Shown one piece after another: positions 26,948 to 34,614 of a stretch of DNA of 39,433 nt. The stretch is taken from the IMG/VR virus record IMGVR_UViG_2597489870_000003. One strand, written 5' to 3'. Both the position numbers and the translations under genes were made by a program. Numbering within the stretch: position 1 is the stretch's first letter; each line of letters opens with the position of its first letter. The stretch is from a virus (lineage: Duplodnaviria; Heunggongvirae; Uroviricota; Caudoviricetes). A model generated the notes under the pieces. The model saw nothing but the letters and a program-made list of their open reading frames with translations, was not told where the DNA came from and did not search any database.

Positions 26948-27122
26948 TGGGGCTGTCCTTTTTACCAGAGCTGAACCATTTTCTGGGTGCCGTCAGGCTT
27001 GAGATTATCAATTTCAGAGAAAACGTAATATTGAATGGCTTCACAAACGGTGGTGTAGGGTGAATTACCTTCTTTAAGTGGCACGATATTATTATTAACG
27101 CGAACCTGGTAATGACTCCAAC

Positions 27123-27626
27123 TTATTGATAGTGTTTTATGTTCAGATAATGCCCGATGACTTTGTCATGCAGCTCCACCGATTTTGAGAACGACAGCGA
27201 CTTCCGTCCCAGCCGTGCCAGGTGCTGCCTCAGATTCAGGTTATGCCGCTCAATTCGCTGCGTATATCGCTTGCTGATTACGTGCAGCTTTCCCTTCAGG
27301 CGGGATTCATACAGCGGCCAGCCATCCGTCATCCATATCACCACGTCAAAGGGTGACAGCAGGCTCATAAGACGCCCCAGCGTCGCCATAGTGCGTTCAC
27401 CGAATACGTGCGCAACAACCGTCTTCCGGAGCCTGTCATACGCGTAAAACAGCCAGCGCTGGCGCGATTTAGCCCCGACGTATCCCCACTGTTCGTCCAT
27501 TTCCGCGCAGACGATGACGTCACTGCCCGGCTGTATGCGCGAGGTTACCGACTGCGGCCTGAGTTTTTTAAATGGCGGAAAATCGTGTTGAGGCCAACGC
27601 CCATAATGCGGGCGGTTGCCCGGCAT
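27123..27626 (-). CDS. insB: IS1 transposase InsB reading frame (expressed as InsAB' by frameshift)
   Basis: 167-aa ORF matching IS1 InsB as recalled. Confidence 0.93.
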
Positions 27627-27820
27627 CCAACGCCATTCATGGCCATATCAATGATTTTCTGGTGCGTACCGGGTTGAGAAGCGGTGTAAGTGAACTGCAG
27701 TTGCCATGTTTTACGGCAGTGAGAGCAGAGATAGCGCTGATGTCCGGCGGTGCTTTTGCCGTTACGCACCACCCCGTCAGTAGCTGAACAGGAGGGACAG
27801 CTGATAGAAACAGAAGCCAC
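27545..27820 (-). CDS. insA: IS1 InsA (transposition inhibitor / N-terminal part of transposase)
   Basis: 91-aa ORF with [23 protein letters not shown]... zinc-finger N-terminus. Confidence 0.93.
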
Positions 27821-28790
27821 TGGAGCACCTCAAAAACACCATCATACACTAAATCAGTAAGTTGGCATCATCACCCGCGAACCTGTATTTCATCGTTATA
27901 CATTGCGATCGAAAGAGGAGTATGCACGAAGGCGACTTCGCCAGGTGTGTCGTCAACCACTGTCTCAATGCTGAAAATCAGTTTTCGCTCATCATTGCCG
28001 CCCCTTGCTTTGGGGGTAGCGGCAGGGATCTGAGATAAAGGCATTCTGCGAAATCCTTCGGCTGCTTCCAGTCCGCATGAAACGTAATGCTGGCGATTAC
28101 CGTCGCTATCTGTCCAGGTCTGTGATGGCAGCTCCAGCGAGATTTCATAAGCATCAACAATGCCCTGGGCAAGGCGTACAAGCGGGGTCAGATCTTCATT
28201 GCGGCGAAAGCTCTCCTTTACCTGCTCCCGTTTTTCTCTTAACTGCTTGTAATTAATGACCATAAGACAGCCTCCATTGATTTCTTTGCTCGTATTTTGC
28301 ACTTACGAAGTATGGTCGGCAAGGTGCCGTATCGCTGACGCGCTTCGCTTGTCTGCTGCTTCGCCGGGGCATAAAAAATTTATGCCCCGACTCTCCAGCT
28401 CCTGTATCAATCAGATAATTTCACGACGCCTTCCAGTTTATCGCCACCATCGACGGTCAGACTCTTACGCAATCCCACCACGTTGACTGTATGTTCTCGC
28501 TGCCTCAGTGCGATTTTGACGGCCTTACCTTTCACCCCATCAAATCAAAAGCCCTCACGCCTTTTTCATGCTCAGCGTGAGAAATATGGCCATTCTGTTG
28601 TGTCTCTGCGACATCGTTCAGGGAATGCTATTTACCCCCTGAAACGCGGGCTGTTCCCCCGTCACCTGCGCGTAGAAAAAACGCGTTTTTTGTGCACGTA
28701 CGGATCCTTGACGGATCCAGCCGCCACGCGGGCCGGAAGTACAAAAAGTCGTTCAAAAAAATTGTGCAAACTTGTGCACTATCGTGCAAA

Positions 28791-28815
28791 CAAAAAAAGC
28801 GCCTTATCGGCGCTT
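28791..28815 (-). terminator. Rho-independent terminator downstream of the 89-aa ORF
   Basis: On the minus strand: AGCGCCGATAAGGCGCT followed by TTTTTTT. Confidence 0.7.
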
Positions 28816-28823
28816 CAAAAATA

Positions 28824-29093
28824 TCAATTGTTGCTGTGTATTAATCGCCAACCACGAACATATGCTTCATAAGCATCTCTGTGCCTTACAGTTCCAGCCT
28901 GGCTAAACGGAATGTTAGCTAAAACTAAATCATTCTGAGCCATAGCGCGTCCTTCAAGCGCATCTTTTATGCCTAGCTCAAAAGCACAGGCAGCGCATTT
29001 GTGCCGACCTTCTTGTCCTTGATATTCAGGGAGAGACAGAAATGTTGGGTTATAACGATGAGGGTTCTTGCAAATACCTGTTTTAGCCCGCAC
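28824..29093 (-). CDS. Hypothetical 89-aa Cys-containing protein (accessory gene near packaging site)
   Basis: GTG start with GAGGT Shine-Dalgarno; Cys cluster (C8, C33, C36); own promoter and structured leader; no family recognised. Confidence 0.5.
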   Translation of the reverse strand: MRAKTGICKNPHRYNPTFLSLPEYQGQEGRHKCAACAFELGIKDALEGRAMAQNDLVLANIPFSQAGTVRHRDAYEAYVRGWRLIHSNN

Positions 29094-29330
29094 TTTATTT
29101 ACCTCATAGGAAAAATATGCGTGCCTTTACAGAGGTGCGTGTAAGCAATAAAATATACGACGCACATTTTGATTTACTTCGGAAGGCACGCATATCAGGT
29201 TAAGTGAGTCCGACCGAGTTCTACGCCCCAATAGTTGCTGCTATTGGGGCGTTTTGCATGGACAATGCCGCGCAATTATCTTGTCGCTCACAATGCGAAC
29301 GATCTTACAAAAAGGCACATTACTGTCAAG
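29094..29330 (-). promoter_or_regulatory. Sigma70-like promoter plus roughly 200-nt structured leader of the 89-aa ORF
   Basis: Minus strand TTGACA (29329-29324), 16-nt spacer, TAAGAT (29307-29302); leader contains a 10-bp-stem hairpin (29224-29251) and a 13-bp inverted repeat ATATGCGTGCCTT/AAGGCACGCATAT whose distal arm is followed by TTTTT just before the ribosome-binding site. Confidence 0.45.
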
Positions 29331-29457
29331 ATAATTGATCGTTTTAATCGATAGATAATAGACAATCTATTTGTTTAACAGATCGATTATTGAAGTAAGT
29401 GCGCCAAATGGAATGATACTGTTTCTATAAATGTGAGCATTTTTCGCGCAGATGCTT

Positions 29458-29769
29458 TTACCCAGGAAATAACGCCCGGATATTCCCAGCCATCTGGCTG
29501 GTTATCTTAGCCACTGGTGCAGACTGTGCTTCAAACTTTTTTGAGCTGATTTGTGTCACAGGTAACATCTCATCATCAGCCCATGCGGCCAGTCGGTAAG
29601 CCTCTGCCGGATTCGTCTTCAGAAGTGCCAGCCCGGCCAGAAAAGCCACGCGTTGGCCGCTTTTGCGGGCTTCTGGTGTAAGGCTGTCCAGCCAGGCGCA
29701 TGCTTCTCCTTCGTTCTTGACGGCAGCTGGCTTCAGATAGAAACTTATTCTTCTGGTTGGTGTCGTCAT
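29458..29769 (-). CDS. parR: ParR/StbB-like centromere-binding adaptor protein
   Basis: 103 aa directly downstream of the parM-like gene; resembles R1 ParR as recalled (R.I.F.L.P...LDS.P...R...A.LAGLAL...NP, C-terminal NI..LFP). Confidence 0.7.
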   Translation of the reverse strand: MTTPTRRISFYLKPAAVKNEGEACAWLDSLTPEARKSGQRVAFLAGLALLKTNPAEAYRLAAWADDEMLPVTQISSKKFEAQSAPVAKITSQMAGNIRALFPG

Positions 29770-29773
29770 TGGT

Positions 29774-30733
29774 TTACTCCTTGTTCATTGCGTACAGCCC
29801 ATTAACCAGAGCAAACTGTGGCACCCCGTCCGCGATGAAAGTCGCATTAACTCCGCAGGCTTCGCGGATAGCGGGTGCCACAATCTCCGCCCCTCCACCG
29901 ACAACCATCACCCGCCCGTAACCGGAAAAACCCGCCAGCGCGCGGATCACTCGTTGTTTCAGTGTCTCCTCCTTTTCACGAATAACCGCCATCAGGCTGT
30001 TGTAATGCGCGTCATTGTGAATGTGCTGGCGCAGCCAGGCTTCATCGTGACGGTGCTCAATAATGGTATTGGCGATGTGGTGACTGGTACGCATACCGTT
30101 AGTGGCCATCACCGACAGCACGGCATCAGCCATCAGGGAAACGCCTACGTTTGGATCGCAAAACACCTGGCTGATACCTGCCAGCTGCCCCTGAACCTTT
30201 GCCACATCCAGCGTGGTTCCGCCCAAATCCACAATCAGCAGGGATTCAAACGGACTCATGTCAGCCAGTGCCTTAAAGCCAGCCGGAATGGATTCAGGCA
30301 TAACCCGTACGTTACGGATAGTGAATGCTTCGCCGTTCTGGTACTCCACCGGGCGCATGACGTTCGCTTTTTTGCGGTTGATGTTGGCCATGTCCGGCTG
30401 TGCGTTTGTGTCGAAATACTCGCTCAGTGGCAGGGTGACAACCACATCCACCTCCTGTGGCGTGATGCCTGATTTGACCAGCGCGTGATGAATGGCGATT
30501 ACATTCACATCGCTGTACTGGTATTGCGTGTCAGTCGTCTGGACAAAACGATCGCTGACCGGATCAAAGCCATAGCGCACGCCATCAAGCATGTAGTTCG
30601 CGGGATGCGTGCCACCGAACGGCGCAGACCATTCCGACTTGAAGCTGTTCGGGCTGATGGCGTTGCGGCGTTCGCCGTTCTCAGTCCATGCCAGCTTGAT
30701 GTTGGTGGAGCCGTCGTCGATACAAATTTTCAT
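29774..30733 (-). CDS. parM: ParM/StbA-like actin-fold partition ATPase
   Basis: 319 aa; IDDGSTNIKL.W, ISPNSFK.EW, YSDVNV.A.HHAL, PESIPAG, DLGGTTLD, GGGAE, LVNG.Y motifs match plasmid R1 ParM/StbA as recalled. Confidence 0.85.
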   Translation of the reverse strand: MKICIDDGSTNIKLAWTENGERRNAISPNSFKSEWSAPFGGTHPANYMLDGVRYGFDPVSDRFVQTTDTQYQYSDVNVIAIHHALVKSGITPQEVDVVVTLPLSEYFDTNAQPDMANINRKKANVMRPVEYQNGEAFTIRNVRVMPESIPAGFKALADMSPFESLLIVDLGGTTLDVAKVQGQLAGISQVFCDPNVGVSLMADAVLSVMATNGMRTSHHIANTIIEHRHDEAWLRQHIHNDAHYNSLMAVIREKEETLKQRVIRALAGFSGYGRVMVVGGGAEIVAPAIREACGVNATFIADGVPQFALVNGLYAMNKE

Positions 30734-34292: not shown

Positions 34293-34614
34293 GGTGTGGC
34301 CTCTACGTGTGTAAGTTTTGAAAACTCACCATCCAGAGCTGCGAAACTGTGGGTGGCGAGACGTACGAGGTTCGCAGTACCGGCAAACGCAGAACCCGGC
34401 CCGACCGAAGTCGGCCCCGTACGCCCCACCATAATTCTGATGCGAAAAAGACGTGGCGATACAGTACGCACAAAAAAACCGCTGGCGCGGTTGTGCGCTA
34501 CGTTTGTCAGCGGGCTGCGAAACCCGGCACCCGTTTTATGAGGTGCAGCGGAAATGTAACCTGACTGATTGCGGCATGGCAAGCGGTTTTTTTGTGTGTG
34601 CATGTTCTGGTTTC

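Follow-up and report, generated by a model that had tools for sequence, protein, structure and literature searches.

What controls the small gene that lies beside parR in a prophage of Escherichia coli, and what does the structured, non-coding sequence in front of it do? We addressed this question for the IMG/VR virus record IMGVR_UViG_2597489870_000003 (Caudoviricetes), a stretch of 39,433 nucleotides (nt) that is hereafter called the window. The non-coding stretch under study (positions 29094-29457) is located between parR and an open reading frame (ORF) of 89 amino acids (aa), and contains the 5′ untranslated region (UTR) of the latter. The initial annotation had proposed that a minus-strand promoter and a highly structured leader gate expression of this ORF, and that a hairpin of the leader, read on the plus strand, could end a small antisense RNA. 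Based on sequence comparisons, the region is best read as a conserved sense/antisense cassette, i.e., a prophage "moron" with its own promoter and terminator. We consider it fairly probable that the antisense RNA exists and represses the 89-aa gene; we also infer that both RNAs are made, with the antisense RNA acting as the repressor, and that free expression of the cargo is harmful.

Convergent promoters and a predicted antisense RNA

29126-29154, plus strand: antisense promoter TTTACA-17-TAAAAT, 10/12 consensus matches, within the loop enclosed by a 13-bp inverted repeat
29161-29257 (approximate), plus strand: predicted cis-antisense RNA of ~96 nt, in which folding gives ~54 unstructured nt and then a terminator hairpin
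29223-29234 / 29241-29252, no strand assigned: helix P2, a GC-rich hairpin with a perfect 12-bp stem (ACGCCCCAATAG / CTATTGGGGCGT), from an inverted-repeat search
29302-29329, minus strand: sense sigma-70-type promoter TTGACA-16-TAAGAT (−35 at 29329..29324; −10 at 29307..29302), 10/12 consensus matches
29295 (approximate), minus strand: predicted sense transcription start, from the promoter position
29094-29295, minus strand: leader (5′ UTR of the 89-aa gene), predicted 202 nt, fold z = −4.1

We compared the window with loci encoding relatives at 46-63% protein identity to the 89-aa protein, drawn from Providencia, Proteus, Enterobacter, Pantoea, Salmonella, Yersinia, Cronobacter, Arsenophonus, Gilliamella, and Actinobacillus. 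Every enterobacterial and Gilliamella locus examined has a plus-strand promoter of the form TTTACA/TTTACT-17-TAnnnT at a distance of 28-37 nt before the start codon. An alignment of 21 leaders, with a mean column identity of 57%, contains 12 invariant columns, nine of which fall within this promoter: the sense-strand GTAAAG (antisense −35) and A...TA (T1, A2, and T6 of the antisense −10). Of the three others, one is T130 and two belong to an ATAGG motif that adjoins the hairpin. In the window, the promoter, which the initial annotation had overlooked, is directed at helix P2, 91 nt away, which is followed on the plus strand by TTTG and is the predicted terminator of the antisense RNA. This hairpin, first described with a 10-bp stem, in fact has a perfect 12-bp stem, and each of its predicted pairs shows a compensatory change in at least one relative. 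In relatives, the tail of P2 is T/C-rich on the antisense strand only and A-rich on the sense strand; hence P2 is not a sense-strand terminator. The suggestion that a small antisense RNA ends here, a predicted RNA still, gains comparative support from the conserved promoter upstream, and it is mainly this cross-lineage conservation of promoter, hairpin, and layout that leads us to accept it.

The predicted RNA is a perfect complement of the leader from about +39 to +135. Its length, as given by a script applied across lineages, is 105 nt in the window and 141 nt in Yersinia, with most lineages at 72-82 nt. The body of the RNA shows no conservation between lineages and, since a cis target co-varies by definition, this favors action in cis over a conserved target in trans. 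In all enterobacterial and Gilliamella lineages, the antisense target begins right after the 5′ hairpin of the mRNA and ends 64-72 nt before the start codon. These loci share the same order of elements, i.e., GATC, sense promoter, 5′ hairpin, GC hairpin, long irregular hairpin, hairpin of the Shine-Dalgarno sequence (SD), and start codon; the leader sequence is largely replaced between lineages while this order stays, with a UTR of 170-234 nt in the relatives.

The near-consensus minus-strand promoter of the initial annotation is indeed found at 29329..29302. Homologous loci carry an equivalent sense promoter, TTGAnn-16/18-TAnnnT, at the same place. Two features of the DNA lie upstream of it:

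29337-29340, no strand assigned: GATC site, 7 nt before the −35 of the sense promoter (about −45)
29341-29400, no strand assigned: AT-rich region that precedes the sense promoter and shows dyad symmetries (ATCTGTTAAACAAAT; two copies of ATCGAT)

A GATC occurs 5-7 nt upstream of the sense −35 in 22/22 leaders, covering all lineages. The window has a second GATC (29301-29304) that runs into the 3′ end of the −10 hexamer, an overlap shared by the E. coli types, and many lineages contain GATC-containing palindromes (GAGATCTC, GTGATCAC) at the predicted start of the antisense RNA. The promoters of the cassette may be subject to modulation by Dam methylation or by a factor that binds GATC. The AT-rich region is absent from phage P88 but, in the E. 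coli relatives L073-L076, is conserved at about 85% by eye, far above their diverged leaders; it may be a candidate operator of the cassette.

Some further observations concern the surroundings of the sense promoter. A perfect 11-bp inverted repeat (29273-29283 / 29327-29337; CAATTATCTTG / CAAGATAATTG) flanks it, and one of its arms extends into the −35. Chance alone would give about 0.08 repeats of this kind, and the repeat is not kept in the closest divergent relatives, L075 and L076; it may be an operator or a chance occurrence. A Salmonella locus (L096, ~2790-2830) has lost the sense −10 region that is present in the Cronobacter copy L107; this cassette may be in decay, or may rely on transcription reading through from cI. 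LexA and CRP were considered as readings of an A-rich element upstream of the Pantoea- and Salmonella-type promoters, and were set aside as poor matches by eye. In a Pantoea locus (L041, 106-2155), the cassette adjoins a perfect LexA box (TACTGTATATAAATACAGTA) and a divergent operon made up of a small gene, a umuD-like gene, and a umuC-like gene; the box is part of this divergent umuDC-like operon rather than of the cassette.

Leader helices and a predicted translational switch

29263-29295, minus strand: helix P1, a 5′-terminal hairpin of the mRNA that is weak in the window
29183-29195, minus strand: 5′ arm of helix P3 (ATATGCGTGCCTT), within the target of the antisense RNA
29115-29127, minus strand: 3′ arm of helix P3 (AAGGCACGCATAT), overlapping the antisense −35 box and leading into the SD region
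29135-29165, minus strand: helix P4, nested hairpin GTGCGT (29165..29160) / ACGCAC (29140..29135), whose loop holds the antisense −10
29091-29105, minus strand: SD GAGG (29105..29102) and GTG start codon (29093..29091), after TTTTT

The leader has close to the ~200 nt first proposed and is highly structured, with a predicted fold of −71.4 kcal/mol compared to −54.2 ± 4.2 kcal/mol in dinucleotide shuffles (0/200 as good). All elements that the initial annotation had described in it were recovered: the 13-bp inverted repeat is perfect with 55 nt between its arms, the GTGCGT/ACGCAC pair is nested within it, and TTTTT is followed by the SD and the GTG start. By chance, a stretch of 801 nt would hold about 0.005 perfect inverted repeats of 13 nt. 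It forms helix P3, and P3 and P4 together make up the long irregular hairpin of the leader.

RNAalifold, run on MAFFT alignments, recovered P2 as the sole helix, since the other helices are not aligned by sequence; P1, P3, and the SD hairpin were therefore tested per lineage against shuffled sequences. P1 is predicted in the 14 lineages examined, from unrelated sequences (mean z = −2.4). In the relatives, the SD is placed within the 3′ arm of a hairpin (mean z = −2.3), and the TTTTT that follows the distal arm in the window aligns with the U-rich loop of this SD-sequestering hairpin. The long-range helix P3 is found in 10/10 representative lineages, again from unrelated sequences (RNAduplex z = −2.2 to −5.6 compared to shuffles). 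Its 3′ arm begins in the AAAG of the antisense −35 and its 5′ arm lies 55-65 nt upstream, in the antisense target. As a helix at this position is stronger than shuffles in each lineage tested, the 13-bp repeat represents the form that a conserved RNA helix takes in the window. The arms of four types are as follows:

P3 arms, window: AUAUGCGUGCCUU / AAGGCACGCAUAU
P3 arms, second E. coli type: GAGGUGUCAUCU / AGAUGAACACCUC
P3 arms, Providencia type: CAGGGUUU / AAAGCCCUG
P3 arms, Pantoea type: GUGCUUGAAUGUUUU / AAAGCGUUCGGCAC

A strong stem that runs into U5, within so structured a leader, is also what a metabolite riboswitch or a Rho-independent attenuator would look like, with the 13-bp stem and TTTTT as terminator, and the initial annotation had favored a leader of this kind. 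We regard this explanation as extremely unlikely. The stem encloses 55 nt and hence is not a canonical terminator, nor was it called by the terminator scan; no sense terminator is called or conserved, and the U-run corresponds to the SD hairpin loop in relatives. Most of the few invariant positions belong to the antisense promoter, whereas a ligand pocket would call for a conserved core of unpaired bases, and the leader is largely replaced between lineages. Rfam searches, at the gathering threshold on the window and at E ≤ 10 on the region, returned nothing relevant to the leader, and no family matched at 8 homologous loci. The covariance check gave sub-threshold scores that cover the hairpin only, the best in the region being 22.1 bits (threshold 45) and 22.0 bits (threshold 43); the similarities are to ctRNA_pGA1 (RF00236) and sar (RF00262; 22 vs 43 bits). 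The known antisense and small RNA families, among them sar, ctRNA_pGA1, C4 (RF01695), and Sok, are all below threshold at the cassette.

Mutually exclusive structures had been anticipated at the level of transcription, as terminator and antiterminator; such a pair was not supported, whereas alternative structures driven by the antisense RNA are supported for translation, through pairing with an anti-SD segment. In the lineages inspected, the anti-SD segment is common to the 3′ end of P3 and the SD hairpin, so that the 5′ arm of P3 resembles the SD region in most lineages, and helix P3 is predicted to compete with the hairpin that hides the ribosome-binding site (RBS). We calculated the cost of opening the RBS as the ensemble free energy needed to open positions −14 to +3. 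With the antisense target blocked, this cost rises in 13/14 lineages, by a median of ~5 kcal/mol, and in the window from 2.8 to 7.2 kcal/mol. Native targets likewise give a lower opening cost than shuffled ones in 13/14 lineages, and in eight of these none of 40 shuffles equalled the native sequence.

The mechanism that we propose on this basis is antisense capture of an anti-anti-SD arm. The sense sigma-70 promoter would give rise to an mRNA whose ~200-nt leader carries P1, P2, P3/P4, and an RBS that the anti-SD can hide, while the convergent plus-strand promoter in the P3/P4 loop would produce an antisense RNA of ~96 nt ending at P2. In the free mRNA, the 5′ arm of P3 would pair with the anti-SD side of the leader, leaving the SD cheap to open. 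The antisense RNA would capture this arm, most readily on the nascent transcript before the 3′ arm exists, and the anti-SD thereby set free would close the RBS. The duplex of ~96 bp would be a likely substrate of RNase III, and cleavage would remove the protective 5′ hairpin. In the lysogen, the 89-aa protein would as a result be tightly repressed at the post-transcriptional level.

Several observations weigh against this reading. In the AT-rich stretch of the window, two promoter-like sites were found compared to 2.1 expected in shuffles; the promoter match alone is at chance level, and so the weight of the promoter rests on its conservation in relatives. The antisense U-tract is short or interrupted (GUUUUG in the window, UUUCCCUUAU in many relatives) and the terminator scan did not call P2 as the antisense terminator. 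P1 (z = −0.7) and the local SD hairpin (z = −0.6) of the window are the weakest of all lineages, and its P3/anti-SD pairing is weaker and more ambiguous than in most lineages. The mean unpaired probability of the window's RBS changes little when the target is blocked (0.55 to 0.47), and Yersinia L098 shows no switch effect in either energy calculation; the antisense-driven RBS switch is a prediction of thermodynamic models only. Farther afield, the promoter match is poor in Actinobacillus, and a locus of Prolixibacter (Bacteroidota; L105, 2671-3000) has a promoter type other than sigma-70 and a different upstream region of ~650 nt with direct repeats (GTAATTTAC...ACGCAGTAAT); the antisense layout is uncertain for homologs outside Enterobacterales and Orbales.

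The weak U-tract and uncalled hairpin would also fit a cassette that makes no antisense RNA, in which the conserved TGTAAAG, A...TA, and hairpins act in the sense mRNA or the DNA only, e.g., as a protein-binding site, an mRNA stabilizer, or a processing site. Part of TGTAAAG does lie within the 3′ arm of P3, and the invariant GATC and conserved upstream dyads are DNA-level elements of the cassette. However, the invariant bases are the most informative positions of a sigma-70 promoter at a fixed 17-nt spacer in every enterobacterial and Gilliamella lineage, and those of the antisense −10 are in an unpaired loop. TGTAAAG pairs with different partners in different lineages, and hence its invariance is not required by base pairing. 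We therefore judge a cassette that lacks antisense RNA to be quite unlikely. Transcriptional interference alone, between convergent promoters 134 bp apart and with no pairing between the RNAs, would account for the conserved face-to-face arrangement, and interference of this type is well established in P2/186-type phages. It leaves unexplained the conserved P1, P3, and SD hairpin and their coupling to the antisense target, and we hold it to be very unlikely as the sole mechanism; interference and RNA pairing are compatible.

The cargo protein and its genomic setting

28824-29093, minus strand: 89-aa cargo gene, phrog_3941, with a GTG start codon
28796-28816, minus strand: intrinsic terminator at the end of the cassette, GAAGCGCCGATAAGGCGCTTT then TTTTGTTT, from the terminator scan
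29458-29769, minus strand: parR, with a Plasmid_stab_B match

The 89-aa protein is a soluble, basic Cys/His protein (isoelectric point 9.2; grand average of hydropathy, GRAVY, −0.57) with no transmembrane segment, its highest Kyte-Doolittle score over 19 residues being 0.58. Among PHROGs it matches only phrog_3941, of unknown function, and a profile search returned 1,206 relatives, every one annotated as "hypothetical" and lacking a Pfam domain. Residues C8, H12, R13, Q25, R30, H31, C33, C36, A37, S64, Q65, A66, V69, R70, and H71 are invariant in the family. This pattern suggests a zinc site and possibly nucleic-acid binding, the reading as a zinc protein resting on C8, H12, C33, and C36 together with the R/H/Q/S motifs. 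Searches of Pfam, NCBIfam, PADLOC, and PDB sequences gave no match, including none to a toxin, and a structure model (predicted local distance difference test score 86.7) has no significant structural neighbor. A likeness to ribosome modulation factor (RMF) was rejected, given that the top Foldseek hit was insignificant (E = 1.4, TM 0.35/0.50) and the hhalign probability was 1.9%; homology to P4 Gop was likewise rejected (hhalign probability 0.05%). The protein also resembles an internal duplication, in which QGQEGRHKCAACAFELG (residues 25-41) is similar to SQAGTVRHRDAYEAYVRG (residues 64-81), and in the AlphaFold model a short bridge followed by a helix occurs twice.

The RNA unit is portable but normally accompanies the 89-aa gene. 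In 8/26 IMG/VR loci, the cassette carries a 233-aa Bro-N protein in place of the Cys protein, joined at the SD; this swap was the only one to come out of a motif scan independent of the 89-aa protein. These loci are L113, L116, L119, L123, L127, L129, L130, and L131. They lie downstream of cI; in L127, a lambdoid prophage, RecT and an exonuclease of the YqaJ type follow further on. With respect to other cargo, a scan for the Providencia-type motif and a scan of metagenomes returned the Cys protein only. No mok-like leader ORF is conserved across the leaders, and the ORFs called over the leader in several genomes are spurious, e.g., one of 77 aa in L096 and two of 65 and 154 aa in L107.

The window is a P88-like prophage of E. 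coli (Xuanwuvirus, Peduoviridae; P2 family). Over positions 28700-29800 it shares 98% identity with Escherichia phage 520873, which has the order terminase, portal, "hypothetical" 89-aa gene (opposite strand), parR, parM, and replication endonuclease; the order around the 89-aa gene is the same in O157:H7 strain FRIK944. The gene and its leader thus sit in the gap between the replication genes and the portal gene, a site of variable accessory genes in P2-type phages. P88 and other relatives match only to the end of parR, which indicates that leader and 89-aa gene are variable cargo. Both are present in 166/5,426 complete E. coli genomes (~3%) at an identity of at least 99%, including enterotoxigenic E. 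coli (ETEC) H10407, many O111 strains, and some O157:H7 strains. The H10407 copy (NC_017633.1) is 100% identical, which places the predicted sense start at ~2141360 (plus strand), the predicted antisense start at ~2141494 (minus strand), and the antisense 3′ end at ~2141399 in that genome. All of these copies are chromosomal and none is annotated as RNA, and the 89-aa gene is frequently unannotated.

The cassette is also found in prophages of at least eight other genera, and its position is an accessory one in every case. In lambdoid prophages of Salmonella, Yersinia, and Cronobacter it occupies the "rex" slot between cI and N, after cI, and in Arsenophonus it lies between Q and the holin gene. 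In a Gilliamella locus (L100, 3001-4949), a 91-aa member of the family takes the gop position of the P4 gop-beta-cII defense system, followed by a beta homolog (PADLOC, 1e-26) and then a convergent cII homolog (7e-35). Such neighbors are confined to the Gilliamella locus; the window has neither beta nor cII beside its cassette and no homology to Gop, and its cassette is not of the P4 gop-beta-cII type.

Other features of the window were noted in passing. An IS1 copy (InsA 27545-27820, InsB 27123-27626, both minus strand) adjoins a 143-aa ORF (27871-28302, minus strand; the two together span 27100-28302). This ORF matches phrog_5091 and covers positions 1-119 of 164 of the profile only, which suggests that IS1 has probably truncated it; in phage 520873, just 487 bp separate the portal gene and the 89-aa gene. 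Rfam identifies a C4 antisense RNA (34349-34436, 80 bits) and isrK (34472-34546, 70 bits) on the minus strand, presumably RNAs of the immunity region of this P88-like prophage that are unrelated to the cassette. Three consecutive tRNA genes lie at the start of the window on the plus strand (701-773, 831-901, and 917-1000; Rfam).

This setting bears on whether the cassette is a genuine type I toxin-antitoxin or abortive-infection module, in which the 89-aa protein would be a toxin and the antisense RNA a labile antitoxin, such that lost transcription, e.g., on phage takeover, would free translation of the stable mRNA. This is a narrower form of the reading as a sense/antisense cassette. A cis-antisense RNA in the leader, a 5′ hairpin like a stabilizer (the one hint of a stable mRNA), and a sequestered SD are consistent with it, as are the insulated, stand-alone organization at prophage defense and accessory hot spots and the Gilliamella member in the "gop" slot upstream of beta and cII homologs, known components of a defense system. 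Against it, most type I toxins differ from the cargo, which is soluble and basic and has no transmembrane segment; the protein matches neither toxins nor PADLOC, Pfam, or NCBIfam entries, lacks structural neighbors, and is unrelated to Gop; and the same cassette also drives the Bro-N protein. A hydrophobic or membrane peptide of less than ~60 aa is the typical type I toxin, and the 89-aa protein is not one. Soluble type I toxins do exist, e.g., SymE and RalR, and a small hydrophobic toxin is therefore a typical rather than a strictly defining trait of type I systems. We have not filed the cassette among these systems, since its cargo is atypical of type I toxins and since its toxicity is something that we infer only; the narrower reading is possible, if doubtful.

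Significance and comparison with known systems

Antisense control in cis of a gene on a mobile element is a known kind of regulation. Our search of the literature found no description of this cassette, the protein family, or its PHROG, and the cassette itself appears not to have been described before. If the reading as a sense/antisense cassette is true, the antisense RNA and structured leader would constitute an unannotated RNA family absent from Rfam, and would provide a handle on a family of more than 1,200 proteins that lacks annotation, fold match, and literature and that, in P2-like and lambdoid prophages, occupies the classic hot spots for anti-phage and accessory genes. The comparison also corrects annotation, both of the spurious leader ORFs and of the 89-aa gene, which is often missed. 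A more far-reaching proposal is that of a widespread antisense-gated effector module, in which the ~85-aa zinc protein is a type I toxin of a new type or an abortive-infection effector, the regulator is portable and can be placed on other cargo such as the Bro-N protein, and the invariant GATC at −45 senses the state of replication or methylation; we put this forward as speculation, and think it unlikely to hold in full.

In its logic, the cassette resembles type I toxin-antitoxin modules as well as phage antirepressor genes held under antisense control. As in hok/sok-type modules of plasmids and cryptic prophages, a cis-antisense RNA would be made from a promoter within the leader of its target, the leader is long and structured, alternative long-range pairings would set the availability of the SD, and the whole forms an autonomous cassette on mobile elements. 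In contrast, Hok is a membrane peptide of ~50 aa that is coupled to mok, whereas the cargo here is soluble, 89 aa long, and preceded by no conserved leader ORF, and the cassette matches no type I family of Rfam. The tisB/istR-1 and zorO/orzO systems likewise have a 5′ UTR of ~170-200 nt, a structured RBS, and pairing far upstream of the SD, but rely on divergent small RNAs with ~20 nt of complementarity to control small hydrophobic toxins; the complementarity predicted here is ~96 nt and fully cis.

Among prophage systems, sar-ant of P22 and c4-ant of P1/P7 also use an antisense RNA to restrain a gene that is harmful when untimely, as would be the case for this cassette, and one clade of the cassette precedes a Bro-N (antirepressor-like) protein. 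However, c4 has repeated target sites on which it acts in trans, and sar overlaps the RBS of ant whereas the target here stops ~65 nt short of the start codon. IS10 RNA-IN/RNA-OUT shares convergent sense and antisense promoters on a mobile element and a GATC at the sense promoter, but RNA-OUT covers the start codon of the transposase. The predicted mechanism itself is most reminiscent of Inc RNA of IncI-alpha/IncB plasmids (repZ/repA), pT181, and pIP501, where the antisense RNA blocks a long-range pairing that favors translation; the predicted counterpart here is the 5′ arm of P3, which would sequester the anti-SD. Those systems target replication initiators and act by way of a leader peptide with an activator pseudoknot, or else of a transcription terminator, whereas this cassette has no leader peptide and no sense-strand terminator and would apply a related type of interaction to accessory cargo.

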